Assembly: GCA_965201115.1 (NCBI GenBank)
Contig: OZ241745.1
Coordinates: 258,308 to 322,307 of the forward strand
Origin: Alphaproteobacteria bacterium
GTDB taxonomy: Bacteria > Pseudomonadota > Alphaproteobacteria > UBA7887
Length of the DNA: 64,000 bases
Direction: 5' to 3'
Below are positions 8,813-39,447 of this stretch, piece by piece; position 1 is the first letter of the stretch; each line of letters begins with the position of its first letter. The translations under genes were made by a program, and so were the position numbers. A model generated the notes under the pieces. That model worked only from the letters and a program-made list of their open reading frames with translations, was not told the DNA's origin and ran no database searches.

Positions 8813-8975
8813 GCGCCCCCGTCCGCCGGGGCACATGAGTGTGGGCGGCGCCGGCCCCGCGAGCGGCAATCCCCGTTTCTCCATTGCGCGCGGTACGATA
8901 CCTTGCACGGCCGTGCCGCGCCGACGCGTCGCCGACGCCGGGTTGCGCGCTTCCTCGCCGGAGCGACCCCGCCCC

Positions 8976-11900: not shown

Positions 11901-12029
11901 GTAACTCTCTCGCGCGCGATCAGGGAGCGGCTGCGCGCGGAAGGCATTGCCGAAGAAATCGACGCGTGCGTTCGAACGCTCGCGCCGGCCCTGTTTTCGG
12001 CGGCGGACGCGCCGGCCGGTCGTCTGTAG
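8976..12029 (+). CDS. MmeI-family Type IIL restriction-modification enzyme (fused PD-ExK endonuclease + gamma-class N6-adenine methyltransferase + target-recognition domain)
   Basis: N-terminal ADFYLPARRIVVEVK fits the MmeI D-X(9-10)-E-X-K nuclease motif. MTase motifs are GEYYTPDWLAAML (X), LDPACGSGTFL (I) and VANPPWV (IV). About 1018 aa from MTTGD (a GGAG lies 10 nt upstream). The track ORF begins at 8835, but that earlier N-terminus is low-complexity. Confidence 0.7.
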   Translation: MTTGDRRPQGSKSDDLFGAIEGMLRRRRTEPQVKQVLTRIFAALRCDAEPEYRTPAGPADFYLPARRIVVEVKPTGKADPAATYGGAGAAETQLEQLTRYVRSEETRENRSGDVSAGNVPWVGFLTDGRQWRRYEYPRDGGRPALMDGPAPVRFHPGQAAELVGWLESAIARSAGKPWVPPHPYDIFEPFERRLHGIHERHWASGGSVGRGVETKSGIWYDMLRASGMAPRSAPHRHRLFVQHTVLVSVARAVVGAIAGGEAEQDPDYALRDGFAAWPQGTADGRAWQREIFETASRYDWRGRAGDVLRTLYEDVIPSEDRKAYGEYYTPDWLAAMLADEILDDRWANDSASRALAPGDDLSGCGVLDPACGSGTFLYHAARKVLRAQPLRSRELTGTQKADVAAALVHGIDVHPVAVEIARATLLRALPAAPSGGTAALRVYQGDSLVVRRGQNPLLEEGEGKFTVFAKSGQFVLPGAFVRRPDFSRDIRRLVESASQGSDLPRDLASRNTRGESRPIEEAHESLRNICRREGNSVWAWLVINIVAPTLLAERKVDRIVANPPWVVMNDVQVEDRKSEFQSLARELGVWTGGKGAARADIAAVFISRCSDLYLGENGRAAWLANRASIASDSWKGFREECGARMREVLDLSEIREPPFTGAASCAWIEDKSRPAAGIARRIVGTSDNSRIPRDAHWEDIKGKIARADPPPRIPAGPSGYLDRQGKPLFRAGCNLFPQNLVCIAKIQRRGDGAASFVTRGARHKPWKDAGNLQGVVPGEQIVEGILPDDLLPFALRNPATACVLPIRNGELSEEALRSESYWRKASALYDDNRGARAPKTLVGHLNYQGNLARQLPLSRGGRSVVIYNGSGKLLRAARGDGSALAEHKCYWRRCAGADEAAYIVACLNADALQAAFGQARKNDRDFEAHFWKDVPIPLFDREDPAHRKLAELCGKAEDAAKRVRDAAGRWRAETQVTLSRAIRERLRAEGIAEEIDACVRTLAPALFSAADAPAGRL

Positions 12030-16161: not shown

Positions 16162-16270
16162 GACCGCTTCTCCCCCGTTGGCCGGCCGCCAGTTTCGCCC
16201 GTCCCGCCCGCGCGCGCAACCGCCCGCCGGCCCCGGAAGCGCCGGCGCTTCCGGGGGCGCGAATCGGCGG

Positions 16271-21846: not shown

Positions 21847-22522
21847 TGTTTGTATCATAATTCGGTCACTGTGATTTGGCTTTGGCCAGTCGCCTGACGA
21901 GGAGCTGGACGCTGGCGAGGAAGAGCCATGCGCGGGCGCTTTCGATGGCGGTTTCGAAGTCCCTGGCGAGGCGGCGGTTGCGATCGAGCCACGCCAGCGT
22001 GCGCTCGACTACCCAGCGTCTGCGCGGCAGTTCGAAGCCCGACGCGGCGTCGGAGCGCTTGACGATCCCGATTGTCCATTGCCCGCGACTGCGCGGTGCG
22101 GTTTCGAGTTTGGGGCCGGCATAGGCGCCGTCGGCGAAGACATGCCGCAGTTCCGGCCAGGTTGCCTGCGCCGACACCGGCAGGTCGGGCGCGCCATCGC
22201 GGTCCTGTCCATCTGCGGTCCGAACGCGCGCGGCGAGCGGAAAACCCGCGGTATCGGCGACAATATGGCGTTTGCGGCCCTTCACCCGCTTGCCCGCGTC
22301 GTAGCCGCGCGGCCCGCCGCTTTCCGTGGTCTTTACCGAGCGGCATGTCCGACTCGACAAGCCGCCACTCGTCATCGATGAGGTCGCTTGCATACCGCAG
22401 GTGCTTGCGCTCATACTGCGCGCGAGCGATTTCGGTCCACATGCTGTGCCTCGCTGGCTTGCTTCATCGCAACCGGCATACACAACATACTGAAATCACT
22501 CAACTCCATTTCGGTACAGACT
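21847..22522 (-). mobile_element. IS5-family (IS427 group) element with an internal ~230-bp deletion (non-autonomous remnant)
   Basis: OrfA N-terminus MWTEIARAQYERKHLRYASDLIDDEWRLVESDMPLGK runs directly, with a frame jump, into SVKTTESGGPRGYDAGKRVKGRKRHIVADT...ADGAYAGPKL...RRWVVERTLAWL...RLARDFE (OrfB DDE region). The ~75 aa normally between them (TTDLREV...QSVK) is missing. The right terminus atttcggtacagactctgag is at about 22502-22521. Confidence 0.6.
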
Positions 22523-24754: not shown

Positions 24755-24755
24755 G

Positions 24756-26153
24756 TCAGGCGTCGGCGCCTTGGGCCGCGATGTCGGGCGCGATATCCAA
24801 CAGCTCCACAGCCTCGCGAACGACGGTTCGCGGTACCGGGCGCTCGATATCGGTCAAGCGGCGCGCGTCGTGGCGTTCGGCGAGGGAATCGAGCTGGCTC
24901 TCGAGCCACTTGCGATCTACCGCCGCGGTGCGCTCCGGGTACGCCTGCCGGTACAAGTCGAAGACGCGTCGTAGCACATCCCGGATCTGCCGAAGGTCGG
25001 GTTCGACCGCCGAAAAGGCGTGCAAGTGCGAATCCTCAAAGCGCCGTTGCACGTCCCGCACGGCGTCCTCCCCGGTCGCCGTTTCGGCGCCCCCGGGCGC
25101 GCCGCCGAACGCAATTACGAGCGGCAGCGGATACCCGGAAACGACAAGGCGGGCCAACGCGGAAAGTAAATCGGCCCGGCGGTTTCGACGACCGGCGATC
25201 GCGGCGGCCCAGCCGGCGGTGCTTGCATATTCGACGTCGAGCTCATCGAGGATGACAAGCAGTCCCTTGGCGCCGACGCGCAACGCGCAAGCGGTCCACG
25301 CCTGAAGCAAATCGCAAAATCTGTCGGTGCGTTCGTGTACCCGGTGCGCCCTGATAGACGGAAGGCGGCCGTGGTACCGATACTTCAGCTGCCTGAACTT
25401 GTCTTGCGCCTGACTTGCGGACAGATCGAGCGTGAAATAATCTTCAAGAACCTGCAACGCCTCGGCGTCAGCCAGTACGCTTCCCGGGATCGTGCGAATT
25501 GCGGACGCAAGCATCTTCTCGCCCCGCGATGTCGGACGCCAGTTCCCGCTGTTCGCGCGTAACGACGGAAGCCACTCGCGCAATCCGCGCGGCGCCGCTT
25601 CGCCCGGCTTTCCGAGGGAACCGAGAAGCCTGCTCATGAGCGCCATGGGATCCGACAGCCGAACGCCCCCGCCGTCGAGAATCAGGGAGCTCGACGCCAT
25701 GCCCTTGCCGGATGCGATTGCGCGAAGCAGGGTCAACAGATGCGTTTTCCCGCTGCCCCATTCGCCTTCGACGAGTACCGCGCCGGCATCGCCGCCGACG
25801 GCGCGCGACACGATGCGCGCCATATCCGCCTCGATTCGCTCCGTTCCCGCGCTGAGCCGGCGAACATGCGCTTCAAGCGGTTGGCCGAGCCTCAACGCCA
25901 GCACGCCCTGGCGCGCTTCGATCTCGCTTTGCGACATGCTGGGCGGCGAGTCGCGTCCGCGCCCGGCGGCGTCGGCGCCTTGTACATCCGGCGCCGGCTC
26001 GGCGTTCGTATCCAGCCCGAGCTCGCGCGCCGGCACCCAATCCTTCATGTAGCCGAAATCGACGCAAGCGCGGGTTTGGGCGCCGCGATTCTCGACCGAA
26101 ACGATTTTACCTGTGCCGAGCGATGGATGCCAAACATCGTCTCCGGCTCTCAT
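24756..26153 (-). CDS. P-loop ATPase paralog 1 (DUF2791/BrxD-like) with an N-terminal UvrD-C-terminal/Tudor-like domain
   Basis: Start taken at MRAGDD, whose ATG overlaps the upstream gene's TGA (ATGA coupling). GDDVWHPSLGTGKIVSVENRG...VDFGYMKDW fits the GxxVxHxxFGxGxV Tudor-like pattern. Walker A GEWGSGKTHLL; Walker B LLVILDELD. Confidence 0.65.
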   Translation of the reverse strand: MRAGDDVWHPSLGTGKIVSVENRGAQTRACVDFGYMKDWVPARELGLDTNAEPAPDVQGADAAGRGRDSPPSMSQSEIEARQGVLALRLGQPLEAHVRRLSAGTERIEADMARIVSRAVGGDAGAVLVEGEWGSGKTHLLTLLRAIASGKGMASSSLILDGGGVRLSDPMALMSRLLGSLGKPGEAAPRGLREWLPSLRANSGNWRPTSRGEKMLASAIRTIPGSVLADAEALQVLEDYFTLDLSASQAQDKFRQLKYRYHGRLPSIRAHRVHERTDRFCDLLQAWTACALRVGAKGLLVILDELDVEYASTAGWAAAIAGRRNRRADLLSALARLVVSGYPLPLVIAFGGAPGGAETATGEDAVRDVQRRFEDSHLHAFSAVEPDLRQIRDVLRRVFDLYRQAYPERTAAVDRKWLESQLDSLAERHDARRLTDIERPVPRTVVREAVELLDIAPDIAAQGADA

Positions 26154-27457
26154 GGCTCGACGCCCTCGTTCTCGGCGCGCTGGAGTTCGCCGAACGAGCC
26201 CGCGTAACGCTCGGACAGCTCGTTGTCGGTAAATCGTTTCTCGCCATTGTTCTTTTGATACTCCAGCAACCCGGCCCAGCATTTGACATAAAGACGACGG
26301 GCATCTACGTCGAGGTTACGCTGCGAGGCTACGGCGGCAAGAGCGGTTGCGTTGGCCGACTGCATTCCGGCGTCGAATTCGTGTCCTGTAGCGTCCCGAC
26401 CGACGTCGATCAACTTGTGCCCGATATCGACAAGCAGCGTGCGCCGATCCTGGATATGCGCCAAATGCAACTGTGGCGCATAATCGTTATTCTCGTGGAA
26501 CGCCGAGCCCGACACCGCAAGTCGCATTTGCAACGCCGGGTAGCGAGGAAGTTCGTCCAGAATTTCGGAGGTCGCGGCGAAGATGCCGAATAACGGGATA
26601 CCGCCCTCGATTCCCGGCGCGTCGATCAGTACCCTCATTGCCGCCAAAACGCGCTGCAAAGCCCTGCCTCTGACATTGGTGAGGGTTTCGACTTCGTCCA
26701 GCAACAACGCCAGCCCATGAACGCCCGCCTGCGGCGCGAATCGATTCAGGGACCATAACATGTCTCTGCCGAAACGCTTTCTGTCGCCCGCTGTTATTCC
26801 GGCAAGCTTGAGCTCCGAACGCTCCTGTCTGTCGAGTGTGTCGATCTCGCCATCCAGCCATCGTATCGCGGCCTCGCCTCCGGGCGAATCCTCGTCGTCC
26901 TTCGCTTCCCGCAGCGCCGCGGCCATGACGCGACCGAATGTGCGCTCCGGATACGTTGTCTTTCCGACACTTGCGATCCACCTGTCGAGCGCGACCTCCG
27001 GGTCAGGAACGCCGCGTTCGGAAATTTCCTGTCGCTTCGTATGCAGAACCCGATGGAGCAGCCCGCGCAGCCCCGGATTCGAATATCCGGGCAGGGACAA
27101 TTGTTGGACCGTCTTGCCGTAGAGAGCGAAGGGATCGTCAACGCTGACCCCCGGCGCGCAGGCGACGTACGACACCGCAAAATTTTCGCGCAGCGCGCGT
27201 GCGCCGAGCGCCAGAAGAAAATGGGTCTTTCCGCCGCCGTAGGGCGCCAGGACGAGCTTGAAGTGCGCCGCCGAACGGCACAAATCGCGCAGATAGCGCT
27301 CAGTCAAGCGGTCCAGCCAGCCGTCGATGCCGACGGAATAGCGGGGAAGGGTATTCGAGGCGTCGGCGATGCCGCCGGGCGGCTTGCCGTTGGCCGCCAG
27401 GGTAGCCCATAGCTGGCGGGCTTGCGCCGCAGCCGTCTCGCGCTGTCCGTCAGGCAT
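26150..27457 (-). CDS. P-loop ATPase paralog 2 (DUF2791/BrxD-like)
   Basis: Walker A APYGGGKTHFL, Walker B LLLDEVE, 435 aa. The N-terminal WATLAANGKPP...SVGIDGWLDRL block is shared with paralog 3. 8-nt overlap with the upstream gene. Confidence 0.65.
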   Translation of the reverse strand: MPDGQRETAAAQARQLWATLAANGKPPGGIADASNTLPRYSVGIDGWLDRLTERYLRDLCRSAAHFKLVLAPYGGGKTHFLLALGARALRENFAVSYVACAPGVSVDDPFALYGKTVQQLSLPGYSNPGLRGLLHRVLHTKRQEISERGVPDPEVALDRWIASVGKTTYPERTFGRVMAAALREAKDDEDSPGGEAAIRWLDGEIDTLDRQERSELKLAGITAGDRKRFGRDMLWSLNRFAPQAGVHGLALLLDEVETLTNVRGRALQRVLAAMRVLIDAPGIEGGIPLFGIFAATSEILDELPRYPALQMRLAVSGSAFHENNDYAPQLHLAHIQDRRTLLVDIGHKLIDVGRDATGHEFDAGMQSANATALAAVASQRNLDVDARRLYVKCWAGLLEYQKNNGEKRFTDNELSERYAGSFGELQRAENEGVEP

Positions 27458-28607
27458 GGTTCGCGATCCTTTCCAACGCGCCGCCGGCCGCCATTTTGAT
27501 ATAGTCGCGTACCCGGCCTTGATGTATGTCTGTTGCGTACTCGTTTGCGCGCGCGTCCAGGCGCTCCAGCAAGCCTGCCCGCGCGTCGGAAGGCATGCCG
27601 GCCTCGGCGCCGATGTCCGCGATGCGGGCGGCGATTTCGCGGTAGAACAGGGGGTCGTCGGGCCCGGGATCGGTCAGCTCGTCCAACGCTACCCAGATCG
27701 CGCGCGGATTCGGAGGGGGCGGCGGCGTCGCTCGTTCGATACGCTGCCTCAAAGCGCCGAGATAGCCGCCGGTGGTTTCGATGAAGTCTTCCGCCGCCGC
27801 ATAGTAGACGACGCAACCGCCGATAGCGCCGACCGCCATGTAATCGACGAAAGTTCGGAGATGTGCCAGGCGGCGCAGTATTCGTGTGCGCCCGCCCCTG
27901 TTCAGCGCCGTCTCGGTTTCGTCGAACAGCACGACGAGGCCGGAATAGCCGAGCGCGCGCGGTAGCGACAACAGGGATCGCAACCAGGCGCCCGCGTTCT
28001 TCTGCATAAGCTTGCCGAGGGGCCGCGGCAACCAACGGTGTTGCCGGCACAGGCGCCCCGGCGCCGCGTTATGCCCGCGGGCCGCCTCCAACAGCGCCGC
28101 GAGCGAGTCGCACAGCTCGTCTTCGTCCGTCAGGGCGGCGGCCGCATACGACCGCGCCAGATTGCGGTAGTCGGGCGCCAGCGTCTTGTCGGCGCAAAGG
28201 CGCTCGCTCGCCGGGGCGTTTGCGATAACGCGAACCACGCCGGCGTCGCCGACGGACGTCGGTTTCCCCGGAGGTTTCATACGATGCGCGATCGAGCGAT
28301 AAGTCTCGTCCAGAGTGTCGAACGGGCTTCTGTCCAGGCAATCGACGTATGCAGTAACGAAGCCGTATTCGCACGCGCGGTGTTCCACGGCGCGGAGGAA
28401 ATGCGTTTTCCCGCGTCCGTACGGCGCATGGATAAACTGCATCTCGCCCCCGCCGGCGGCAGCGAAGGGAAGGGTCTCTTCGGCGATACGCCGGAGCGCG
28501 CCATCGATGCCGGCAGACAGGCGGATCGTTGTTTCGCCGTCTGCCGGAGCGACGCCGTTCGCCGCCAAGGCGGCCAGGATATGCCTCGGGTTCATGGCGC
28601 GGCTCAT
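27450..28607 (-). CDS. P-loop ATPase paralog 3 (DUF2791/BrxD-like)
   Basis: Start taken at MSRAMNPRHIL (ATGA overlap with the upstream stop). Walker A APYGRGKTHFL, Walker B VVLFDETE, about 385 aa. Confidence 0.6.
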   Translation of the reverse strand: MSRAMNPRHILAALAANGVAPADGETTIRLSAGIDGALRRIAEETLPFAAAGGGEMQFIHAPYGRGKTHFLRAVEHRACEYGFVTAYVDCLDRSPFDTLDETYRSIAHRMKPPGKPTSVGDAGVVRVIANAPASERLCADKTLAPDYRNLARSYAAAALTDEDELCDSLAALLEAARGHNAAPGRLCRQHRWLPRPLGKLMQKNAGAWLRSLLSLPRALGYSGLVVLFDETETALNRGGRTRILRRLAHLRTFVDYMAVGAIGGCVVYYAAAEDFIETTGGYLGALRQRIERATPPPPPNPRAIWVALDELTDPGPDDPLFYREIAARIADIGAEAGMPSDARAGLLERLDARANEYATDIHQGRVRDYIKMAAGGALERIANHA

Positions 28608-29416
28608 TGCATCTTCTCGATCCACAGCGATGCCAGCTGATGGCCGAGCCCCCCTTGCGCCAGGTTGGGCAAGGTAAGCGCGGCGCCGCGGCCGATGGCC
28701 GCCATGTTCGGCGTCTGGCTCGCCAGGCGTTCATGGTCGTTCGCATACCAGCCGCCGCGCCCGAAACGGGCCATGTCGTATATGAACTGGCACATCGAAT
28801 AGTCCTTGAATTTCTTTCTGTTGGGTTGCTTCCTGAACGCGCTGTCGCGATACTGGCGCTCAAGCACGACGTGCAGATACAGCGTTCGGATGGGGGTCTT
28901 GCCGCCGCGGTCCTCGCCGCGCGCCCGCGCACACCCCAAGGCGTTCTTGACCGTCGCGAAAAACTCGTCGCGCGCAAACGGCGCGCCGTCGAGTTTCTCC
29001 TTCGCATCCCGGATACGGGCGAACAGGCGCGCGCCATCGGTCTCGTCGAACATGTCCAGCTTCTCGCTGCCGAGATACAACGTCACGCGCGCAAGGCGGT
29101 ACTGGACCTTGAAGCAATCGACCCAGTCGTAATTCTGCAACCTGCGCGTCGGCCATCCCGCGTCGCCCGCGGCGTTGTGCAGCGCTTCCCTGCGCTTCGC
29201 GAGTTTGTCTTCGACGCGGCGCTTGAGCGCGTCCCGGCGCTTTTCGAGGGTTTCGACCAACCCGCTCTCCGAAACCTCGCGTACGGCGTCGATGGTCTTG
29301 TCGATCAAAGACAGCAAGGGCAGGTCGTCGTCCGGCTTGGCGCGCGACAAGGCATCGGTCGTGCGCTTTGCCTTGGCGACGCCCTTCTTTATGGCCTGAA
29401 TTTCGTCGTCGAGCAC
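28604..29416 (-). CDS. hypothetical protein, first gene of the ATPase-helicase operon (coiled-coil N-terminus, no recognisable domain)
   Basis: GTG start with a GGGAGG Shine-Dalgarno 8 nt upstream. The track ORF extends to 29773 but that extension runs through a REP element and is R/P-rich junk. About 270 aa, with WVDCFKVQYRLARVTLYLGSEKLDMFDETDG...YLHVVLERQYRDSAF. Confidence 0.5.
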   Translation of the reverse strand: MLDDEIQAIKKGVAKAKRTTDALSRAKPDDDLPLLSLIDKTIDAVREVSESGLVETLEKRRDALKRRVEDKLAKRREALHNAAGDAGWPTRRLQNYDWVDCFKVQYRLARVTLYLGSEKLDMFDETDGARLFARIRDAKEKLDGAPFARDEFFATVKNALGCARARGEDRGGKTPIRTLYLHVVLERQYRDSAFRKQPNRKKFKDYSMCQFIYDMARFGRGGWYANDHERLASQTPNMAAIGRGAALTLPNLAQGGLGHQLASLWIEKMQ

Positions 29417-29915: not shown

Positions 29916-31541
29916 GTGACGCAGACACTTTACATACTTGCCGCCTATCTGGTTTTCGCCGGGCTGTTCATGCGGTTGCGGGTGGGGCCGGTGGTGGGGC
30001 TGCTGGTGGCCGGCGCGGCCATCGGGCCGTTCGGCGCCGGGCTGGTGAGCGACGTCGAGGCGGTCTCGACCCTCGCCGAGCTCGGCATCCTGTTCCTGCT
30101 GTTCAACGTCGGGCTCGAGATCAAGTTCGAGCGCCTGCGGCTGTTCGGGTGGCGCGTCTATGCGCTCGCGGTGGGGCAGGTGGCGCTCACGGCGGTCGCG
30201 TTCGCGCTGGCGGCGCGGGGGCTGGGGCTGGCCCCGGAAGCCTCGGCGCTCGTCGGCGGCGCGCTGGCGCTGTCCTCCACCGCCGTGGCGCTGCAGGTCC
30301 TGGCCGACCTGGGGCGGATGCTCACGCAGCTCGGCCGCCTCGCCATCGCCACGCTGCTCGTCCAGGACCTCGCGGTGGGGCCGCTGCTCGCGGCGGCGAA
30401 TGTGCTGGCCGCGGGCGAGGACATCCGCGAATCGCTGTTGCACATGGCCGTGGGCGGCGCGATCGCGGTGGCGGCGGTCGTGGCGCTGACGCGGTTCGCC
30501 CTGCCGCGCGCCATTCGGCTGGTGGGTTCGCTCGGCGGGGGCGAGCTGTTTCTCGGCCTCGTGCTGCTGGCGGTGTTGGGCGCCAGTCAGGCGACCGAAC
30601 ATGCAGGGCTTTCCGCCGGCCTGGGCGCGTTTCTCGCCGGGCTCCTGGTGGCGGACACCGAATACCGCCACCAGATCGCGGCGGATATCGCGCCGTTCCG
30701 CGGGCTTCTGCTCGGGTTGTTCTTCATGGCGGTGGGCATGAGCACCGACCTGACGCTGGCGCTCGACCGCATTGGCGCGGTGGCGGCGATAGCCGGCGCG
30801 CTTCTGTTCGGCAAGGCGGCCCTGCTTGTCGCGATCGCGCTGGCGCTCGGCTATTCGCTGCGGCTCGCGCTTCAGCTCGGCGTGTTGCTCGGGCAGGGAA
30901 GCGAGTTCTCGTTCGTGATCGTGGCGGCCGCCATGGCCGGCGGGCTGCTGACCGACGGTCTCGGCGATACCCTGACCGTGGCGATCGCGCTGTCGATGCT
31001 GGCGGCGCCGCTGGCCGCCGCGGCGGCGCGGCGATTTCTCGACCGCGTGGAGGGCGCCGCGGCGAGCCCGCTCTCGGACATCGACTCCGACACCGCCGCG
31101 CTGCGCGGCCACGTGGTGATCGTCGGGTTCGGGCAGGTAGGCAAGGCGCTGGCGCGCCATCTGATCGGGCTCGGCGTGTCGGTGGTGGTGCTCGACGCCG
31201 ATTCGCAGCGGGTCCGCGACGCGCGCAAGCGGGGGCTGCCGGTATATTTCGGCAACGCGGCGCGCACCGATGTGTTGCGCGCGGTTCATGTCGATCGCGC
31301 GCGGCTGGCGGTGCTGGCGCTCCCCGACGGCGATCTGACCGCGCGCGTGCTGGCGACGATCCGGCGCATCGCCCCCCGCACGCGCCTCGTCGCCCGCGCC
31401 CCGCACGACACCGACGCCGACATGCTGCGCCGCGCCGGCGCCGAGACCATCGTTGTCGACAGTTTGGGCACCGCGGTAGAACTGGCCGAACGCTCGATCG
31501 TGCTGCTCGACCTCCCTGCCGAAGCGCGCACGGCGGCATGA
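29916..31541 (+). CDS. CPA2-family monovalent cation:proton antiporter with C-terminal RCK/TrkA-N domain (KefB/KefC-like)
   Basis: 541 aa. 12-13 TM helices, then HVVIVGFGQVGKALARHL (Rossmann GxGxxG) and an RCK domain. GTG start. Confidence 0.85.
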   Translation: MTQTLYILAAYLVFAGLFMRLRVGPVVGLLVAGAAIGPFGAGLVSDVEAVSTLAELGILFLLFNVGLEIKFERLRLFGWRVYALAVGQVALTAVAFALAARGLGLAPEASALVGGALALSSTAVALQVLADLGRMLTQLGRLAIATLLVQDLAVGPLLAAANVLAAGEDIRESLLHMAVGGAIAVAAVVALTRFALPRAIRLVGSLGGGELFLGLVLLAVLGASQATEHAGLSAGLGAFLAGLLVADTEYRHQIAADIAPFRGLLLGLFFMAVGMSTDLTLALDRIGAVAAIAGALLFGKAALLVAIALALGYSLRLALQLGVLLGQGSEFSFVIVAAAMAGGLLTDGLGDTLTVAIALSMLAAPLAAAAARRFLDRVEGAAASPLSDIDSDTAALRGHVVIVGFGQVGKALARHLIGLGVSVVVLDADSQRVRDARKRGLPVYFGNAARTDVLRAVHVDRARLAVLALPDGDLTARVLATIRRIAPRTRLVARAPHDTDADMLRRAGAETIVVDSLGTAVELAERSIVLLDLPAEARTAA

Positions 31542-31655
31542 ATGCCAAGGGCTATCGATATCGACCGCCCCGGGACGCGCCGAACCGCCCCGGTGGCCAA
31601 CCGCCCCGGTTCGGGCTATAATCGCGTATCGGCGCCGGAATAACGGGGAAGTCGC

Positions 31656-32963
31656 ATGTTGCTGCGTTTCGGCGTGTCGAACCATCTGTCGATCCGCGAC
31701 TTTCAGGCACTGCTGCTGACGCCTGCCGCGTTGCGGGAACCGGCGGAGGGGTTGATCTCGTGCCCGCCCGCGCCCGGAGGCAAACTGCTTCCCGCCGCCG
31801 TCATCTACGGCGCCAACGCGTCCGGCAAGACGAATTGCATCCACGCCATGCATTTCATGCGCCATCTGGTGTTGGGTTCTCATGCCCACGGGAAGCCGGG
31901 CGAGAATGTCCCGCGCTATCCTTTCAAACTCGATCCGGCCTGCATCGATACGCCGTCGCGCTTCGAAATCGATTTCGTCCTCGACGACGGCGTGCGCTAC
32001 CATTACGGTTTCGAGGCGTCCGACAAGGCGTTCGAATCGGAATGGTTGTACGCCTTCCCCAAGGCGCGCCGCCGGATATTGTTCGAGCGCGACGGAAGCG
32101 ACTATCGTTTCGGCCGCTGGTTGGCAGGCAAAAACGAGATCGTTCGGGGCTTGACCAGACCCAACAGCCTGTACGTTTCGGCGGCGGCGCAGAACGGGCA
32201 TGAGCAGCTGTCCGGTATCTTCGGGTACTTCGAAGCGCTTCATGGCGTTGGCGCTACCGACGTTACGGGCGTGGAGGGCATATTACGGTTCGCCGGAGAC
32301 GAACCGGACCGTCGAACGATCGATTTTCTCGAGCATGTCGGCATTGCGGTATCGGGATACAGAAAAAAGAAAGACGATATGTACGCCAGGATCGGGAACG
32401 ATATGAAAAAAATCGGGGCCATGACCGGCATTCCCGAGGGAGCGGCGGCGTCCGAAGCGTTGCATGACCGCTTTGCGATACTGGCGAGGGACGGGGAACT
32501 GCAACTCGCTCATCGCAGCTGGGCGGGCAACGACGTTTACCTTGAGCTGGAACGGGAAAGCGCGGGCACGCGGCGGCTGCTTCTCGTATTGCGCGAGACG
32601 TATCGTGCGCTGGACAAGGGCTTGCCGTTGGCGATCGACGAACTGGACGCCAGCTTGCACACTCAGGCCGCCAAATCGGTGCTCGGCCTGTTTTGCTCTC
32701 ATGAGACGAATCCGAACGGCGCGCAACTGATCGCGACGACTCACGATACCAACCTGATGAAGGTCCGGATGTCGACGCGGGACCGGATTCTGAGGCAGGA
32801 TCAAATCTGGTTCGCGGAGCAGGGGCGGGATGGCGAGACGACCCTGTATCCGCTTACCGATTACCGGACTCGCAAGGGCGATAATATCGAGAGGGAGTAC
32901 TTGCAGGGCCGTTACGGCGCGACGCCTCTCGATGATATTGTCACGGGCCATGGCGCGGCGTAG
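31656..32963 (+). CDS. AAA_21/AAA_15-type ABC-like ATPase (AbiLi-like abortive-infection ATPase)
   Basis: Walker A at the N-terminus (IYGANASGKTN); D-loop/Walker B LAIDELDASLH; H-loop ATTHDTNL. 435 aa. Confidence 0.75.
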   Translation: MLLRFGVSNHLSIRDFQALLLTPAALREPAEGLISCPPAPGGKLLPAAVIYGANASGKTNCIHAMHFMRHLVLGSHAHGKPGENVPRYPFKLDPACIDTPSRFEIDFVLDDGVRYHYGFEASDKAFESEWLYAFPKARRRILFERDGSDYRFGRWLAGKNEIVRGLTRPNSLYVSAAAQNGHEQLSGIFGYFEALHGVGATDVTGVEGILRFAGDEPDRRTIDFLEHVGIAVSGYRKKKDDMYARIGNDMKKIGAMTGIPEGAAASEALHDRFAILARDGELQLAHRSWAGNDVYLELERESAGTRRLLLVLRETYRALDKGLPLAIDELDASLHTQAAKSVLGLFCSHETNPNGAQLIATTHDTNLMKVRMSTRDRILRQDQIWFAEQGRDGETTLYPLTDYRTRKGDNIEREYLQGRYGATPLDDIVTGHGAA

Positions 32964-33621
32964 CCGCAAGGACGGCCGCGGCGATCCGATAGCGTTCGAA
33001 CGCCGTCGTTCCGTTCGGGATCGGAGGCGGCGCTTCGTTCTGTTTTGCGAAGGCCGCAACACGGAACCGGGGTACTTCGGAGCGGTTCGGCGGTTCTGCG
33101 CGGGAGGCGCCGTCGCCATACGGATTGTGCAAGGTCTCGGCGTGCCGATGGCGGTTGCGGAGCGCGCCGCGGATGAAAGCAGGCAACTTCGTGCAAGGGG
33201 CGCGGGTCGCGGCGGGGACCGGATCTGGGCGGTGTTCGACCGTGACAGCCACCCGGAATATGAGGAAGCGGCGGTGCTTTGCGAGCGGCACGGGGTCGAA
33301 GTCGCGCGTTCGGACCCGTGCTTCGAGCTCTGGTTGATTCTCCATATCGAGAAATACGACAAGGCGTGCGGCAATAGCGACGTGCAAAGGCGTCTTGAGA
33401 CGCTGCGCCCCGAATACGATCGCAAAGGCGCCAAGACGGCGGACTTTACCGGCTTGATTCGCTGTGCAGAGGATGCGGAAGAACGCGCGGCCATGCAATT
33501 GCGTTTGCGCGAACGGGAAGGAAAGCCGTTCGGCAATCCTTCGACCACGGTCGGGAATTTAACCCGCGCCATTCGCGAGGCGAACGGGCAAGCGCGTTGG
33601 AGCGCGCCGCCCGCCCGATAA
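32950..33621 (+). CDS. RloB-like protein (AbiLii-like; predicted Toprim/OLD-type nuclease partner)
   Basis: FVLFCEGRNTEPGYF matches the RloB N-terminal signature (xLIVCEGEKTEPxYF). Conserved DRD and E motifs (WAVFDRDSHPEYEE, CFELWLILH). Overlaps the ATPase stop by 14 nt. Confidence 0.7.
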   Translation: MARRSRKDGRGDPIAFERRRSVRDRRRRFVLFCEGRNTEPGYFGAVRRFCAGGAVAIRIVQGLGVPMAVAERAADESRQLRARGAGRGGDRIWAVFDRDSHPEYEEAAVLCERHGVEVARSDPCFELWLILHIEKYDKACGNSDVQRRLETLRPEYDRKGAKTADFTGLIRCAEDAEERAAMQLRLREREGKPFGNPSTTVGNLTRAIREANGQARWSAPPAR

Positions 33622-33686
33622 TCCGAACCGCCGCCGGGGCGTACCGGGCCCGACATTCGATTTCCGCGCAGGCGAACCCCGCTCGG

Positions 33687-34307
33687 TCACGGCCGGCGCG
33701 CGCGCGCCGCGCCGATCATGCTGTCGCGGCTCACGAGGCGGGCCAGTTCGGGCTCGGGCCAACCCGCTGTTCCCGCGGGACGTTCGGGGACAACGAGATA
33801 GCGCATGTCGGCGGTCGAATCGTGGACGCGGACCTCGACGCCGGACGGCAGCTCCGTGCCGAATTCGCGCAGGACGGCGCGCGGCTCGCGAATCGCGCGG
33901 CGGCGGTAGGCGGCGGACTTGTACCACCGCGGCGGCAGGCCGAGCAGCGCGCGCGGATAGCATGAACACAGCGTGCAGACGACCAGATTATGGACGCGCG
34001 GCGTATTGGCGACCGCGACCAGCGGCGTTCCGTCGGTGGCGATGTCGAGCTCCTCGGCCGCCGCGGCGGCGTCTGCCAGCAGGCGCGCGGCATAGGCGGG
34101 GTCGGTCCACGCGCGGGCAACGATGCGCGCGCCGCGGGCGGGGGTGCGGGCGTCCATCGCCGCGACCTGCGCCGCGTGCTCCGCCGCCGTGAAGACGCCG
34201 TTCTCGACGAGCAGCTCCTCCACGGCGAGAGCGAGCCGGCGGTAATGCGGGTCGCCGGTCGGCGGCGGGCCGTGGGCGTGTTCGCGCGGCGCGCGCTCTC
34301 GCGTCAT
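33687..34307 (-). CDS. nitrile hydratase alpha-subunit-like protein (Co-type CTLCSC metal site); could be a thiocyanate hydrolase gamma-like subunit
   Basis: VVCTLCSCYP is the post-translationally oxidised cysteine cluster of NHase alpha. 206 aa. Confidence 0.75.
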   Translation of the reverse strand: MTRERAPREHAHGPPPTGDPHYRRLALAVEELLVENGVFTAAEHAAQVAAMDARTPARGARIVARAWTDPAYAARLLADAAAAAEELDIATDGTPLVAVANTPRVHNLVVCTLCSCYPRALLGLPPRWYKSAAYRRRAIREPRAVLREFGTELPSGVEVRVHDSTADMRYLVVPERPAGTAGWPEPELARLVSRDSMIGAARARRP

Positions 34308-34627
34308 GGGCGGGCCTCCTCGCCGGGTCCGGCGGGTTCGAGCCAGTGTTCGTGGATTTCGACCTCGGCGGCGTCGCCGGGTGCGCCGGCGTAACCGGGC
34401 CACAGAAGCGCCTGCCGGAAACGCACGCGGTAGAGCGGCCGGCGCGGCAGGCCGTCGCCGCCGTAAGCGAGCGTTTCCGGATTGCGGAACGCGCCGCATA
34501 TGCGCTCGATCTCGCCGATCTTGCCGCGGACATAGTGCGGCGTGCGGATATGCGGCTTGCGCGGCCCGGCGGGCGGGCGGCTTTCCGCGACGCGCACACG
34601 GTCGCCGGCGGCGTAGCGCGGCGTCAC
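34304..34627 (-). CDS. nitrile hydratase beta-subunit C-terminal-half homolog (SH3-like domain)
   Basis: RYAAGDRVRV...PHYVRGKIGEIERICGAF...LYRVRF...LWPG...VEIHEHWLEP parallels the NHase beta C-terminus. Confidence 0.65.
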   Translation of the reverse strand: MTPRYAAGDRVRVAESRPPAGPRKPHIRTPHYVRGKIGEIERICGAFRNPETLAYGGDGLPRRPLYRVRFRQALLWPGYAGAPGDAAEVEIHEHWLEPAGPGEEARP

Positions 34628-34929
34628 GGCGCGCCTTCCCCGTCATGCGCGCCGCGCGCGGCGATTGCGGCCATCCGGGCCTCCAGGGCGGCGCGGTCGA
34701 GCACGCCCTTCTCGATCAGGATTTCGGCGATGGACGCGATCCAGCGCTCGTAATAAAGCAGGCGGTCGTACAGGTCCGGCGCGAGGGCCTCGATGCCGCG
34801 GCGCAGTTCATCGACGCGCATGACCTTCTTGTCGCGCACGAGCAGCGTCATGATGGCGTCGATGCGCTTTTCCCAAGGCGCGTAATCGTGCTCCTCGGCG
34901 GCAACGGGGCCGGCGGGCAGGCCGCCCAT
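34624..34929 (-). CDS. nitrile hydratase beta-subunit N-terminal-half homolog
   Basis: MGGLPAGPV...YAPWEKRI...YYERWIASIAEILIEKGVL resembles the NHase beta N-terminal helical domain. The track ORF's upstream extension is discarded. Confidence 0.6.
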   Translation of the reverse strand: MGGLPAGPVAAEEHDYAPWEKRIDAIMTLLVRDKKVMRVDELRRGIEALAPDLYDRLLYYERWIASIAEILIEKGVLDRAALEARMAAIAARGAHDGEGAP

Positions 34930-34946
34930 GTCGTGGTGGGCGCGGG

Positions 34947-35831
34947 TCACGGGTCGAGGCCGTCCACGAAGGCGGCCAGCGCGGCGCCGATCTCGTGCGG
35001 CGAATCTTCCTGGATGAAGTGCGTTCCGGCGACCGCGACCTCGGTCTGATTGGGCCACGAGCGGCAGAACTCGCGCTGCGCGCCGACGAGGATGGTCCCC
35101 GGATTCGCGTCGATAAACAGTTTGGGCGTCGGGGTTGCGGCCATCCACGCCGCCCATTCCTCGGCGAGCGCGACGACATCCGCCGGTTCGCCGCCGACCG
35201 GGATTTCGCGCGGCCAGGCGAGGGTAGGGCGGCGCGATTCGCCGGGCTCGCGGAACGGCCGGCGATAGGCCTCCATCTCGGCTTCGCCCAGCCCGCGAAT
35301 CACCGACGCGGGGAGCAGGCGCTCAACGAACAGGTTGCGCTCCAGAACCATCTTCTCGCCGTCCGGCGAGCGCAGGGACTGGAAGAACTTGCGCGCGGGC
35401 GCCGGCCATTCGTCCCACGTCACCGGGCGCACGAGCGCCTCCATATACGCGATGCCCGCCACGCGCCCGGGGTTGCGGCGCGCCCAGTGGAAGCCGAGCG
35501 CCGAACCCCAGTCATGCACGACAAGCACGGCGTTGCGCACATCGACCGCGTCGAACCAGGCGTCGAGACAGCGCGCGTGATCGGCGAAGCGGTAGCCGCT
35601 CGACGACGGCCCCGATTCGCCCATGCCGGCCAAATCGGGCGCGAGGCAGCGGCCGCGATCGGCCACATGCGGGATGACGTTGCGCCAGAGATACGACGAG
35701 GTGGGGTTGCCGTGCAGGAACACGATATCGCGCCCCGCGGCGGAGTCGCCGGTATCGACATAGGCGATTTCGGTGCCGGCGGCGGCGATGCGCTTGCGCG
35801 GATGCGGGTCGGCGGCGGAGATTTCGGGCAT
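34947..35831 (-). CDS. haloalkane dehalogenase-like alpha/beta hydrolase
   Basis: IVFLHGNPTSSYLWRNVIPH; nucleophile elbow VVHDWGSALG; 294 aa. Confidence 0.8.
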   Translation of the reverse strand: MPEISAADPHPRKRIAAAGTEIAYVDTGDSAAGRDIVFLHGNPTSSYLWRNVIPHVADRGRCLAPDLAGMGESGPSSSGYRFADHARCLDAWFDAVDVRNAVLVVHDWGSALGFHWARRNPGRVAGIAYMEALVRPVTWDEWPAPARKFFQSLRSPDGEKMVLERNLFVERLLPASVIRGLGEAEMEAYRRPFREPGESRRPTLAWPREIPVGGEPADVVALAEEWAAWMAATPTPKLFIDANPGTILVGAQREFCRSWPNQTEVAVAGTHFIQEDSPHEIGAALAAFVDGLDP

Positions 35832-36931: not shown

Positions 36932-38827
36932 ATGAAATACCTGTCGGACGCCGCAATACGGTGGGCTATCGACCGGTTGCGAAAAGGGTCGCACCCGTTT
37001 CTCGGCATCACCTTTCTGGCGTGCAAATCGGCAGGCTTGCCTGTCGGTTCGACCGCGCGCGTGCGCCTGGACCGGGTGACGCGGGAGCATCTCGACCGCC
37101 ACCACCGTTTGGCGCCGCAAAGCGACTGTTATTTTCAGCCGTTCGGCGGGAAGAAGGCGTGGGTGGGGCCAAAGTACCCATCGAAGGGGCTCCAGCCTTT
37201 TAATACGGGAAAATTCGCGCGCGCATTCCGGCATCCCGGGGGAACACAGGAATGGGGTTTCGTCGAGAACTACGTCGATGAGATTGCCGACGTCGGGCGA
37301 TACGCCTTGGATCTTCAAGCTGTATCGGTATGGGTGCTGAAGGATCGGAAGTGGTCCGACCGCGACTCCTTGGAAACGGTGATCGATTGTTTTCTCGAGT
37401 CGTACAGAATTACAAAATACGAGCGTGACAATCTGTTCTCCATGGATGGGTTTGGAATGGCGGATGAATTGGCAAACGAGGATGTATCGCATTGCGGTAT
37501 ATTCGACGAGCGCCCGCCGGATTTGAGAGGTATCGCATTTCGATACGGCGCCCCGCCGGATAACAAGGTCGACAAGAAGCGCTCTCGACTGCTTCGTTTG
37601 GCGCTGTCGGATGTCGGACCGTCCAAAAGACTAAGCATGGATTTGGGGAAACGTCTAACGCTAATTGCAGGCGACAACGGTTTGGGGAAATCGTTTATTC
37701 TGGATGTTATATGGTGGGCAATAACAGGAAATTGGCTCGGACGGCCCGCGTTGCCTTTCGACGTGTTAGAGAATGGCTGCAACAAGGTCGCAGCAACGAT
37801 AGAGTTTAAGGTTGCGATGGATGAGGCGCCGAGTGTAACAGCGAAGGGTTATTTTCATCGGGATACCCATTCGTGGAACATGGACAGCGAAAGACCCCGG
37901 TTATCTTCCTTGTGTATTTTCGTCAGGGTCGATGGTTCGTTTGCGGTCGCCGATGAAATGCGAGCCAGATTTGGGAACGGCAATCGATCCGGCATCGGTT
38001 ATTTTACGAGGGCCGAAGTATGGGATGGCAAACCGGGGGAGATCGAGGGTATGGTTCGGGACTGGATCGCCTGGCAGCTGTCTCCCGACCGCGAGACATT
38101 CTCGAAATTGGAGAAAGTTCTTGCCTGCTTGTCCCCGGAAGATCTAGGGCGTATAAAGCCGGGGGATCCGGCGCGGCTTCCCGGAGACCCGCGGCAAATA
38201 CCGACTATCGTTCATCCCTACGGGACTGTCCCTGTCGTGTTCTCGTCCGCCGGCGTTCAGAGTATTCTTCTTCTGACATATATGATGACATGGGTATGGC
38301 ATGAACACAAGATCGCCGCCCGGCAGCTGGGCGAGGAGCCGTTTGGAAGGATGACAATAATCCTGGACGAAGTAGAGGCCCACCTGCACCCGCGATGGCA
38401 GAGGACTGTTTTGCCTGCGTTGATGGGAATCGGCGATCTTTTGCAGAAAGATATAGCGGTGCAGGTCGTTGCTTCTACGCACTCCCCTATGGTGTTGGCG
38501 TCCATGGAGACGATGTTCTCGCATGGCAGCGATGTACTGTATCATCTGCTTCTAAAGGATTCGGCGGTGGTATTGGAGGAAATCGAGTTTCAAAAATACG
38601 GTGATGTATCGGCGTGGCTGATGTCTTCGGTTTTCGGGCTGCGGCATGCGCGCTCGCGCGAGGCAGAGGAGGCGATAGAGGCAGCAAAAAAAGCGCAGCT
38701 GTCGAGCATGGATGATAAATCGGAGGTAGAGAATATATCCAATAAATTGAAACGTGCATTGGCGGGCGACGATCCGTTTTGGCCGCGGTGGATATTCTTT
38801 GCGGAAGAAAGGGGGGTATCGTTATGA
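36932..38827 (+). CDS. AAA_15/21-type ATPase (Septu PtuA-like) with an additional ~240-aa N-terminal domain of unknown function; located in a low-GC island
   Basis: Walker A LIAGDNGLGKSF sits at about residue 245 rather than at the N-terminus. Walker B/D-loop MTIILDEVEAHLHP; H-loop VVASTHSP. 631 aa. Local GC is markedly lower than flanking DNA. Confidence 0.65.
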   Translation: MKYLSDAAIRWAIDRLRKGSHPFLGITFLACKSAGLPVGSTARVRLDRVTREHLDRHHRLAPQSDCYFQPFGGKKAWVGPKYPSKGLQPFNTGKFARAFRHPGGTQEWGFVENYVDEIADVGRYALDLQAVSVWVLKDRKWSDRDSLETVIDCFLESYRITKYERDNLFSMDGFGMADELANEDVSHCGIFDERPPDLRGIAFRYGAPPDNKVDKKRSRLLRLALSDVGPSKRLSMDLGKRLTLIAGDNGLGKSFILDVIWWAITGNWLGRPALPFDVLENGCNKVAATIEFKVAMDEAPSVTAKGYFHRDTHSWNMDSERPRLSSLCIFVRVDGSFAVADEMRARFGNGNRSGIGYFTRAEVWDGKPGEIEGMVRDWIAWQLSPDRETFSKLEKVLACLSPEDLGRIKPGDPARLPGDPRQIPTIVHPYGTVPVVFSSAGVQSILLLTYMMTWVWHEHKIAARQLGEEPFGRMTIILDEVEAHLHPRWQRTVLPALMGIGDLLQKDIAVQVVASTHSPMVLASMETMFSHGSDVLYHLLLKDSAVVLEEIEFQKYGDVSAWLMSSVFGLRHARSREAEEAIEAAKKAQLSSMDDKSEVENISNKLKRALAGDDPFWPRWIFFAEERGVSL

Positions 38828-39447
38828 TTCCGGTGCGGCGTCAGCCGGAGTATCGGGAGTTCGATAAGGAAGTTCGTCAACCGGGTCTGCGATTTCTGAA
38901 AGCAAATCCACGGCCGAATAGCAGGGAGTTCGCGGAACATGAGTACTGGCGGAAGGCGCACTCCCAATTAAGGCATGTATATGGGGGCTTGTGCGCATAC
39001 ACATCGCGTTACATCGTCGACGTCGGCGAGGGATCTGTCGACCATTTTCATCCGAAAAGCAAGTTTCCTGATCTTGCGTATGAGTGGTGTAACTATCGGC
39101 TCGCAAGACGGAAAGTTAATAATTATAAAGGCGACAAAATTGGAATAATAGATCCGTTCGTAGTGCAATCGTCGTGGTTTATACTTGAGTTTCCGGGCTG
39201 TTTGGTACGGTCGGGGATCGATCTCGATGAGAAAACGGAGAATCGTGTGGAAAAATCGATAGAAGTATTGCGATTGAACAAGGACGACAGGTTGGTTCAG
39301 GAGAGATACAACCATTTGAGAGACTATGTGTCCGGAAACTTGACATTGGACTACCTTGACCGCCGTTACCCGTTCCTGTCGAAAGAGATCGGAAGACAAG
39401 GATTGAGCAAGAAAAAGTTGCGGGAAATGTTCAAACGTCCGAAATAA
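38824..39447 (+). CDS. HNH endonuclease (Septu PtuB-like, retron-type small HNH)
   Basis: GLCAYTSRYIV...VDHFHPKSKFPDLAYEWCNYRLARRKVNNYKGD gives the HNH layout C...C...DH...N...C. 207 aa. 4-nt overlap with the ATPase gene. Confidence 0.65.
   Translation: MIPVRRQPEYREFDKEVRQPGLRFLKANPRPNSREFAEHEYWRKAHSQLRHVYGGLCAYTSRYIVDVGEGSVDHFHPKSKFPDLAYEWCNYRLARRKVNNYKGDKIGIIDPFVVQSSWFILEFPGCLVRSGIDLDEKTENRVEKSIEVLRLNKDDRLVQERYNHLRDYVSGNLTLDYLDRRYPFLSKEIGRQGLSKKKLREMFKRPK

Follow-up and report, generated by a model that had tools for sequence, protein, structure and literature searches.

A probable AbiL-family anti-phage module on an inserted 2.1-kb cassette in an alphaproteobacterial genome

The locus and its insertion site

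We analyzed a 64,000-nucleotide window from an alphaproteobacterial genome (GenBank assembly GCA_965201115.1, contig OZ241745.1), in which an ATPase gene is followed on the plus strand by a gene for an RloB-family, nuclease-like protein. Sequence profiles make it very likely that the two genes form an AbiL-family module, which we refer to as abiLi and abiLii. The features discussed here, in positions of the window, are the following:

8835..12029: methyltransferase-like ORF, 1064 aa
21866..22483, minus strand: DDE_Tnp_1 transposase ORF (E 9e-24), 9 kb upstream of AbiL
29916..31541: KefB-like gene (Na_H_Exchanger and TrkA_N)
31542..33686, plus strand: inserted accessory segment of 2,145 bp, from the KefB stop codon to the stop codon of nitrile hydratase alpha
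31594..31622, plus strand: promoter-like site of abiLi, TGGCCA-17 nt-TATAAT, a consensus match
31645-31651, plus strand: ribosome-binding site GGGGAAG upstream of abiLi
31656..32963, plus strand: abiLi, 435-aa ABC-type ATPase (AAA_21/AAA_15, SMC/Rad50-like)
32950..33621, plus strand: abiLii, 223-aa RloB-family protein (longest ORF from 32830)
32950..33033, plus strand: Arg-rich N-terminal tail of AbiLii, 28 residues including 12 Arg, ahead of the Pfam RloB match
33400..33689, plus strand: mosaic patch, comprising the abiLii C-terminal helical module (codons about 150-223) and the 3' intergenic spacer
33687..35157, minus strand: nitrile hydratase alpha and split beta subunits
36932-39447: Septu (PADLOC; PtuA 2e-211, PtuB 1.9e-63)

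A preliminary description of this DNA had placed two plus-strand open reading frames here, at 31656..32963 (435 aa) and 32830..33621 (263 aa, the longest ORF), and we recovered both. It was also right that the second gene overlaps the first, but its start at 32830 gives way to the ATG at 32950. This is most likely the start codon, since the gene calls of the nearest relatives (L001 and L002) lie at the equivalent position and homologues begin M-A/P-R-R; abiLii would then overlap the end of the ATPase gene, whose stop codon is at 32961-32963, by 14 nt. We discount a long antisense ORF (32283..33656, minus strand, 457 aa) as a product of high GC content, since its codon-position GC is flat (GC3 0.67 versus GC1 0.64) and nothing else speaks for it.

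The pair is flanked, as previously described, by a KefB-like transporter and a nitrile hydratase cluster, and its neighbors also include a hydrolase and an SDR gene. In the sister genomes L004, L009, and L010, KefB is followed within about 100 bp by the convergent nitrile hydratase alpha gene, without AbiL, and in L005 a different insert, of 430 bp, occupies the same site. Because KefB abuts nitrile hydratase in related alphaproteobacterial genomes, we regard the AbiL pair as a 2,145-bp insertion of lower GC content, at 62.7% compared with 72-73% in the flanking genes. The whole AbiL cassette is carried within this segment, which is accessory and probably horizontally acquired. When the edges of the insertion were examined for direct or inverted repeats and for a target-site duplication, only short, chance-level matches came up. 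The cassette has its own putative promoter; the site upstream of abiLi is the sole sigma-70-like match in 31300-33900, a region for which shuffled sequences predict 0.5. Downstream of it, a GGGGAA-N-ATG stretch is kept in other AbiL leaders, and a comparison of the leaders of five AbiL loci found only the ribosome-binding-site region in common and no conserved operator.

The statement that the pair is free of mobile-element markers does not hold at a slightly wider scale, given the DDE transposase 9 kb upstream. Moreover, AbiL sits between two other acquired defense modules, namely a Brx-type cluster, in which a BrxHI/SngC-like helicase accompanies three BrxD paralogues, and Septu.

The ATPase and its RloB-family partner

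The family assignment made in the preliminary description, an AbiL-like module of an ATPase and an RloB protein, is supported by Pfam and PADLOC models for both genes. The first gene matches PF13304 (AAA_21; 121.5 bits, E 1e-34, cut-off 27) and PF13175 (AAA_15; E 1.6e-10), and its best PADLOC model is AbiLi (E 1.4e-82), with only a weak match to NsnB (2.5e-5). The motifs that had been quoted for it are all present, with GANASGKTN at residues 52-60, IDELDASLH at 327-335, and ATTHD at 360-364. Across 36 homologues, the invariant positions comprise Walker A (G52-N60), Q179, the signature E301-S302-x-G304-x-R306, Walker B (D328-E329), the D-loop D331, and the H-loop H363. An AlphaFold2 model of low confidence (pLDDT 59) matches SMC, Rad50, PtuA, and AriA heads (E 4e-7 to 1e-3), and a PDB profile search finds SMC3 heads (E 2e-4). 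SMC_N itself scores 24.7 bits, under its cut-off of 40. AbiLi also has a variable helical insertion at about residues 236-283 and a seven-residue insertion, VRMSTRD, that is confined to the lineage of the window.

AbiLii passes the Pfam RloB model (PF13707) along its full length, with 103.8-104.5 bits against a cut-off of 31.5 (E 1.1e-29 to 1.7e-29) and a match that spans profile positions 1-194 of 195; its best PADLOC model is AbiLii (E about 1.2e-22 to 4.4e-22). The N-terminal stretch noted previously, FVLFCEGRNTEPGYF, lies at residues 69-83 of the 263-aa ORF, which are residues 29-43 of the 223-aa protein, and the DRD motif at residues 97-99 of the latter. In an alignment of 37 sequences, the invariant residues are C33-E34-G35, T38-E39-P40, D97/D99, H101, S121/P123-C124-F125-E126, and G195/P197-S198-T199-T200; in 54 more divergent sequences, D97, D99, P123, C124, and E126 remain invariant, and E34 nearly so. 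The Arg-rich tail is predicted to be disordered (pLDDT < 50 over residues 1-23); R18 is invariant, and the basic consensus of the tail is kept across the clade. Searches of the two proteins against NCBIfam matched zero models, and a PHROGs search returned families of unknown function only.

The preliminary description had gone further and proposed that AbiLii is an OLD-type Toprim nuclease. Motifs, predicted topology, and published analyses support this assignment, whereas fold and profile searches gave no significant match. RloB has been placed in the Toprim superfamily, characterized by a Glu after beta1 and a DxD after beta3 (PMC12065111), and in the AlphaFold2 model of AbiLii (pLDDT 68) a strand at residues 27-33 ends at E34 and another at 91-96 ends at D97-R98-D99, so that both elements directly follow predicted strands. 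However, a Foldseek comparison of this model with the PDB returned no Toprim or OLD structure, only PTS-EIIA and Rossmann-like folds (E about 0.01, TM about 0.3), and PDB profile searches based on two RloB alignments turned up no relative of solved structure. The best profile matches were at chance level (myosin light chain, DnaJ, and RNase P protein; E 0.23-0.5); the RNase P protein match, which involves the basic tail and the CEG strand of AbiLii, was not significant and is not relied on. Alignment of RloB profiles with P2 Old by hhalign gave probabilities of 0.5%, 0.7%, and 5%, with the E and DxD motifs in register in the deepest RloB profile only (probability 5% or less). The last search for OLD-Toprim homologues gave 5 hits, and two viral scans yielded nothing but P2-like sequences and two others with 30% identity. 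When 37 AbiLii homologues were scanned leniently with Pfam and PADLOC models, none matched Toprim_OLD (PF20469), DUF4435, DUF4276, or AriB.

Relatives of the pair and a mosaic C-terminus

The two genes form an obligate pair: an AbiLi-type ATPase gene lies directly upstream, on the same strand, in 82 of the 82 independent RloB loci with enough upstream sequence for the comparison. The overlapping arrangement recurs in L001, L002, L003, L171, and L172, and AbiL pairs also occupy other positions in sister genomes. The family is large, with 9,653 cluster representatives at E <= 1e-3, and its homologues are found on 28 IMG/VR viral contigs and on 180 plasmids, some of them small, mobilizable, and annotated abiLI. 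The pair described here is an ordinary new copy within this very common and already known family. Since such modules are already caught by standard defense-system finders, a single additional copy matters little in itself.

Several known systems are comparable. AbiL of the Lactococcus lactis plasmid pND861 has the same order, an ATPase followed by an RloB-type gene, the same co-directional arrangement, and the same AAA_21 and RloB domains; the lactococcal system is plasmid-borne, whereas the pair described here is chromosomal in a high-GC alphaproteobacterial host, and the Arg-rich tail of its AbiLii, upstream of the RloB match, may be a further difference. Identity to the enterobacterial plasmid-borne abiLI genes is only about 25-28%. 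The same two families are paired in the same way in the Clostridium algidicarnis TOPRIM_OLD(D44, RloB-like):AAA(D29) system (NetFlax), which differs in its Firmicute source and in that toxin neutralization, rather than phage defense, was demonstrated. Campylobacter RloA and RloB likewise combine the Pfam RloB family with an AAA ATPase, embedded there between hsd genes. [quoted passage not shown] GajA models match only weakly (E 1.5e-4 or weaker), and similarity to P2 Old is not significant at either the sequence or the profile level. In Menshen, a three-gene system, RloB is the C-terminal domain of NsnC variants and a predicted nuclease effector beside an ATPase (PMC12065111), whereas here it stands alone. 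Septu differs in that PtuA pairs with the HNH nuclease PtuB.

PARIS, composed of the ABC ATPase AriA and the DUF4435 TOPRIM nuclease AriB, shares the division into an ATPase and a Toprim-type effector. Its trigger is Ocr, and its substrate is tRNA-Lys. AbiLii is smaller than AriB (223 aa compared with about 300), and Pfam and PADLOC scans of 37 homologues revealed no DUF4435 (PF14491) or AriB match even at E <= 10, which makes the pair AbiL and not PARIS. Burman et al. placed AbiL in the same AAA15/21 tree as PARIS, grouped with ATPase and TOPRIM systems (PMC11464382). The two systems likely share the logic of a sensor ATPase that restrains a toxic nuclease. In published models, however, AbiLii overlays poorly on AriB (PMC13064643), so the parallel with PARIS may break down in its details.

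Purifying selection acts on both genes, with a dN/dS of 0.15 for abiLi (relative to L001) and 0.31 for the abiLii core, and their dS equals the value for the genes on either side. Neither ORF is truncated: coverage of the homologues is 100%, and every conserved motif is intact. Against this background, one sharply bounded region stands out. Identity to L001 is 91-100% per 100 bp over 29.9-35.9 kb and falls to 48-74% in the mosaic patch, which has been replaced relative to the nearest relative. P0002 combines a core 98% identical to that of P0001 with a C-terminus 95% identical to that of P0006, a protein with only 58% identity in the core. A rather doubtful reading takes the C-terminal module (from about residue 150) as an interchangeable specificity cassette, passed by recombination among distantly related AbiL systems, which jointly with the conserved Arg-rich tail could select the nucleic acid or the ATPase partner of the nuclease.

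Proposed function and alternatives

Taken together, we consider the locus likely to be an intact two-gene anti-phage module of the AbiL family on a horizontally acquired 2.1-kb cassette. As to mechanism, the reading that we favor, with moderate confidence, is that AbiLi senses the phage and restrains its partner, with the RloB-family nuclease as the toxic effector of abortive infection. This proposal is drawn by analogy with PARIS and with the validated toxin/antitoxin pair of Clostridium algidicarnis, the only experimental evidence that an RloB-type toxin is neutralized by its ATPase (PMC10440598). AbiLi, the proposed sensor and restraint subunit, would oligomerize and keep AbiLii inactive until its variable helical insertion (about residues 236-283) senses a phage-derived cue; coupling of this event to ATP binding or hydrolysis would release or activate AbiLii, the proposed Toprim-like nuclease effector, which would cut nucleic acid through a putative Toprim-type metal center formed by E34, D97, D99, and E126. 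Translation would then stop and the infection would be aborted. Tentatively, we judge RNA (tRNA or mRNA) to be a somewhat likelier target than DNA. Lactococcal AbiL works at a stage after phage transcription (PMC13064643).

The same Clostridium pair raises the alternative that the genes are primarily a toxin-antitoxin addiction module, which would stabilize its DNA segment and have no dedicated anti-phage role. An RloB-type protein and an AAA ATPase do behave as toxin and antitoxin in E. coli, a related AAA-neutralized pair gave zero hits in a coliphage screen (PMC10440598), and homologues are common on small plasmids. We nevertheless find this unlikely, because AbiL was originally recovered as a determinant of phage resistance (Deng 1999, as cited in PMC13064643) and because the cassette described here is chromosomal, lying beside core genes and between two other defense systems. 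Since PARIS is both, addiction and defense are in any case not exclusive.

The origin of the RloB name in type I restriction-modification loci (PMC10440598, PMC13064643) suggests instead an RloA/RloB-type accessory that cooperates with a restriction enzyme, as in the Campylobacter hsd loci, and in L172 the AbiL pair indeed adjoins two N6_N4 methyltransferases and a ResIII helicase. The window contains a methyltransferase-like ORF of its own, but no hsdR, hsdM, or hsdS gene or other restriction-modification gene comes closer than 19 kb to the pair. Moreover, the pair has unrelated neighbors in L003 and L171 and occurs on plasmids of 3.5-6.5 kb, and thus behaves as an autonomous unit, making a restriction accessory very improbable here.

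It is even less probable that we are looking at the remnant of a defense system that has lost its function and is decaying. The C-terminal third of abiLii is strongly unlike that of its nearest relative and the VRMSTRD insertion of AbiLi is lineage-specific, as decay might produce, but the divergent C-terminus is shared with P0001 as a clean, in-frame allele, and the complete ORFs, intact motifs, and dN/dS values of 0.15 and 0.31 argue against decay. Finally, the idea that the two proteins are housekeeping factors for DNA repair or chromosome maintenance (RecF/SMC/OLD-like), prompted by the weak SMC_N match and by the SMC3 and SMC/Rad50 heads found in profile and fold searches, is already largely refuted and the least credible of all, since SMC_N is under its cut-off while AAA_21 is far over its own, four sister genomes lack the genes at the syntenic site, the segment has lower GC, and homologues reside on plasmids and viral contigs.

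For the organism, the AbiL cassette represents a clean, well-bounded defense insertion at a conserved core-genome junction, with empty sites in sister genomes, and the three independently acquired modules (the three BrxD genes with a BrxH-like helicase, AbiL, and Septu) mark a defense hot spot in an uncultured alphaproteobacterial lineage. For the family, the sharply bounded swap of the AbiLii C-terminus hints at where AbiL specificity may reside. If this reading is true, the alleles of the window and of L001, set on backgrounds that are 91-100% identical, would provide a ready-made dissection of AbiL target or trigger specificity.

The abiL pair and its family

The cassette at the centre of this analysis consists of two overlapping genes and an upstream promoter-like site.

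Features of the abiL cassette (window positions)
31594-31622, + strand: sigma-70-like site TGGCCA-17-TATAAT, a sequence match upstream of abiLi
31656..32963, + strand: abiLi ORF, 435 aa
32830..33621, + strand: longest ORF of abiLii, 263 aa

Since independent gene calls in the closest relatives use the codon equivalent to ATG 32950, and homologues open with M-A/P-R-R, this ATG is most likely the abiLii start, which would give a protein of 223 aa. From there, abiLii overlaps abiLi by 14 nt (abiLi TAG, 32961-32963), an arrangement that suggests translational coupling, which would balance AbiLi against AbiLii levels. The ribosome-binding site GGGGAAG lies directly ahead of the abiLi ATG; abiLii is convergent with a nitrile hydratase alpha gene, and no intrinsic terminator was found 3' of it.

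The preliminary description of this locus as an AbiL-like module, comprising an AAA_21 ATPase and an RloB-like protein, is borne out by both Pfam and PADLOC. AbiLi matches AAA_21 (E 1e-34, 121.5 bits) and AAA_15 (1.6e-10), AbiLii matches RloB (PF13707) end to end (E 1.7e-29, profile 1-194/195), and the best PADLOC models are AbiLi for the first protein (1.4e-82) and AbiLii for the second (1.2e-22). The score of AbiLi against SMC_N, 24.7 bits, falls below the cut-off of 40, which argues against an SMC/RecF housekeeping ATPase. The motifs quoted at the outset are all present, GANASGKTN at residues 52-60, IDELDASLH at 327-335 and ATTHD at 360-364 of the ATPase, and FVLFCEGRNTEPGYF and DRD in the second protein. 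No NCBIfam model matched either protein, and the PHROGs matches were to families of unknown function only.

The pair differs from related systems in several respects: it lacks the DUF4435 that defines PARIS, its genes are separate and without UvrD, in contrast to the fused ATPase-Toprim and UvrD of OLD/Gabija, its ATPase has no HNH partner as in Septu, it is not embedded in an hsd locus as RloAB can be, and it has two genes rather than the three of Menshen. The locus agrees with AbiL in every sequence-level feature that could be examined, and its sequence identifies it as a new member of a known, very common kind, one that PADLOC and similar standard tools would pick up.

Database matches to the ATPase exceed 5,500 at E <= 1e-10, and RloB gave 416 in a word-indexed search. 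An exhaustive RloB profile search retrieved 9,653 cluster representatives at E <= 1e-3, the best 150 of which are nearly all stand-alone proteins of about 200-230 aa. We searched six-frame ORFs, with HMMs built from our own alignments, in 80 metagenomic and 28 IMG/VR viral loci encoding RloB relatives (21-50% identity). An AbiLi-like ATPase lies directly upstream on the same strand in all 82 loci whose upstream sequence reaches 1,300 nt or more, and the loci without one are all cut off by a contig end. The overlapping arrangement recurs in the nearest relative locus, L001, and in four further loci (L002, L003, L171 and L172). abiLi and abiLii are thus an obligate module.

Across 36 AbiLi homologues, the Walker A residues G52..K58..N60, Q179 of the Q-loop, the signature E301-S302-x-G304-x-R306, Walker B D328-E329, D331 of the D-loop and H363 of the H-loop are invariant, and conservation is lowest in a helical insertion at about residues 236-283. 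In a 37-sequence AbiLii alignment, C33-E34-G35, T38-E39-P40, D97, D99, H101, S121/P123-C124-F125-E126 and G195/P197-S198-T199-T200 are invariant; the 54 sequences of a more divergent set all keep D97, D99, P123, C124 and E126, and at least 90% of them keep E34. Compared with the nearest relative, abiLi has a dN/dS of 0.15 and the core of abiLii one of 0.31, indicating that selection maintains both genes; their dS, about 0.10-0.13, is similar to that of flanking core genes.

Two further features of the proteins were noted. Just past the H-loop, AbiLi carries a seven-residue insertion, VRMSTRD (residues 371-377, window 32766-32786), found only here and in a 96% identical relative and missing from all 34 other aligned homologues. 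AbiLii opens with an N-terminal tail (residues 1-28, window 32950-33033) that precedes the Pfam RloB domain, is predicted to be disordered and has 12 Arg in 28 residues; R18 is invariant, and the basic character is kept across the clade. A likeness of this tail to the RNase P protein N-terminus was at chance level (E 0.35) and is not significant.

An acquired cassette among defence genes

A KefB scan of species-representative genomes yielded four uncultured sister alphaproteobacteria (KefB 76-80% identical), none of which has AbiL at the KefB/nitrile hydratase junction. In three of them the convergent nitrile hydratase alpha gene lies within about 100 bp of KefB, so the 2,145 bp that separate the stop codons of KefB (31541) and nitrile hydratase (33687) are an insertion. 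The inserted DNA has 62.7% GC, compared with 72-73% for the flanks, and a search for terminal repeats found none. The fourth genome (locus L005, 11600-12030) holds a different 430-bp insert, which indicates a recurrent insertion site; that insert encodes a small ORF whose N-terminus is hydrophobic. Two sister genomes carry AbiL pairs of 54-57% identity elsewhere on the chromosome, and homologues occur on 180 plasmid records, including mobilisable plasmids of 3.5-6.5 kb (some annotated abiLI), and in a Klebsiella phage. The window itself is chromosomal, with a complete rRNA operon at 57.3-62.5 kb.

Neighbouring features (window positions)
21866..22483, - strand: DDE_Tnp_1 transposase ORF, at the far end of the BrxD/BrxH cluster
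22544..29416, - strand: BrxHI/SngC-like helicase, three BrxD/DUF2791 paralogues and an unmatched protein (PADLOC/Pfam), upstream of AbiL
33687-35157, - strand: nitrile hydratase-like cluster, alpha with a CTLCSC metal-binding motif, beta split into N- and C-terminal ORFs
36932..39447, + strand: complete Septu, PtuA 631 aa (PADLOC 2e-211) and PtuB HNH 222 aa (PADLOC 1.9e-63)

The helicase of the upstream cluster is of the DEAD type (PADLOC BrxHI 5e-76, SngC 6e-59), and the three ATPase paralogues are consecutive. The fifth protein, of about 270 aa (longest ORF from 29773, 389 aa), has no Pfam or PADLOC match, and no BREX core genes lie near. Conserved in L001 and absent from the four sister genomes, the cluster could be a defence module of the Shango-like or orphan BrxD/BrxH kind, incompletely described by existing models. 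The transposase ORF at its far end shows that the reported lack of mobile-element markers holds for the immediate flanks only. Septu has a GC content of 53%, against 68% for the window, and its absence from the sister genomes makes it a separate acquisition. The BrxD/BrxH cluster and Septu, both missing from the sister genomes, flank the conserved block that houses AbiL; the AbiL pair is an acquired cassette within a defence hot spot.

Other genes of the surroundings merit mention. An alpha/beta hydrolase follows the nitrile hydratase cluster, and the sister genomes share this block as conserved core synteny. A 1064-aa ORF (8835-12029, + strand), beside tRNA-Asn (12242-12317), has weak N6_Mtase (7.8e-8) and MmeI_Mtase (1.8e-6) matches and may be a type IIG/IIL restriction-modification or PglX-like enzyme. 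A very long ORF of 2071 aa (41522-47737, - strand) has a coding-like GC3 of 0.88 and no Pfam match at E <= 1e-5. In L172, a sister-genome locus, the AbiL pair directly adjoins two N6_N4 methyltransferase genes and a ResIII helicase gene (10176-16392, type III-like restriction-modification), a second example of AbiL set among other defence genes.

Possible Toprim fold and proposed mode of action

RloB has been related to OLD_TOPRIM by HHpred (PMC10440598). Another study counts it as a new member of the Toprim superfamily, its Glu following beta1 and its DxD following beta3 (PMC12065111), and lactococcal AbiLii, as modelled by AlphaFold, can be superimposed on the OLD nuclease 6NJV (PMC13064643). 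In our AF2 model of AbiLii (pLDDT 68), beta strands and alpha helices alternate through the core; E34 comes at the end of strand 27-33, and D97-x-D99 at the end of strand 91-96. This placement agrees with the published Toprim motif, so the earlier reading of the DRD/E motifs holds at the level of the catalytic-type motifs. The motif order CEGxxTE / DRD / CFE also parallels VEGKTE / DCD / TFE of P2 Old; hhalign against P2 Old gave a probability of at most 5% (P 0.0075), with the E and DxD motifs aligned in register. Foldseek against the PDB returned generic alpha/beta folds only (E about 0.01), the best BFVD match was another RloB-like protein (E 3.4e-7), and sequence searches of the PDB found no solved AbiLii relative. 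The low-confidence AbiLi model (pLDDT 59) retrieves SMC/Rad50, PtuA and AriA heads (E 4e-7 to 1e-3), matches that are consistent with the Pfam assignment.

By analogy with two systems, we propose how the pair could act. The Toprim nuclease of PARIS is kept on a scaffold formed by an ABC ATPase; once a phage protein causes it to be set free, it cuts tRNA (PMC11464382). The C. algidicarnis pair, in E. coli, combines an RloB-type toxin with an AAA ATPase that neutralises it (PMC10440598). AbiLi oligomers would sequester AbiLii, and a phage cue, sensed via the variable helical insertion and tied to the ATPase cycle, would free or activate the AbiLii nuclease; metal-dependent nucleic acid cleavage would then halt the infected cell. 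The target is the weakest step of this proposal: RNA seems slightly more likely than DNA, given the PARIS precedent, the Arg-rich tail and the lactococcal phenotype, in which AbiL acts after phage transcription (PMC13064643).

A purely addictive (TA) role would be compatible with the same biochemistry, and we regard it as improbable. It is also unlikely that the pair is a restriction-modification accessory of the RloAB type, as no restriction-modification genes adjoin it here and it travels alone. Service as housekeeping repair factors is contradicted by its accessory distribution and the sub-threshold SMC_N score, and decay of the cassette by intact motifs and purifying selection on both genes.

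The AbiLii C-terminal module

Over 6 kb, the window and L001 share 91-100% DNA identity per 100 bp, except for a patch with sharp boundaries, 33400-33689, where identity drops to 48-74%. It spans the part of abiLii that encodes the C-terminal helical module, together with the 3' spacer. The L001 AbiLii allele has a core 98% identical to that of one homologue, P0001, and a C-terminus 95% identical to that of another, P0006, whose core is only 58% identical. Such segment-wise phylogenetic discordance indicates that distant AbiL lineages have exchanged the C-terminal module by recombination. This module swap is one feature of the locus that goes beyond the routine, and the C-terminal module of AbiLii may be a specificity determinant.
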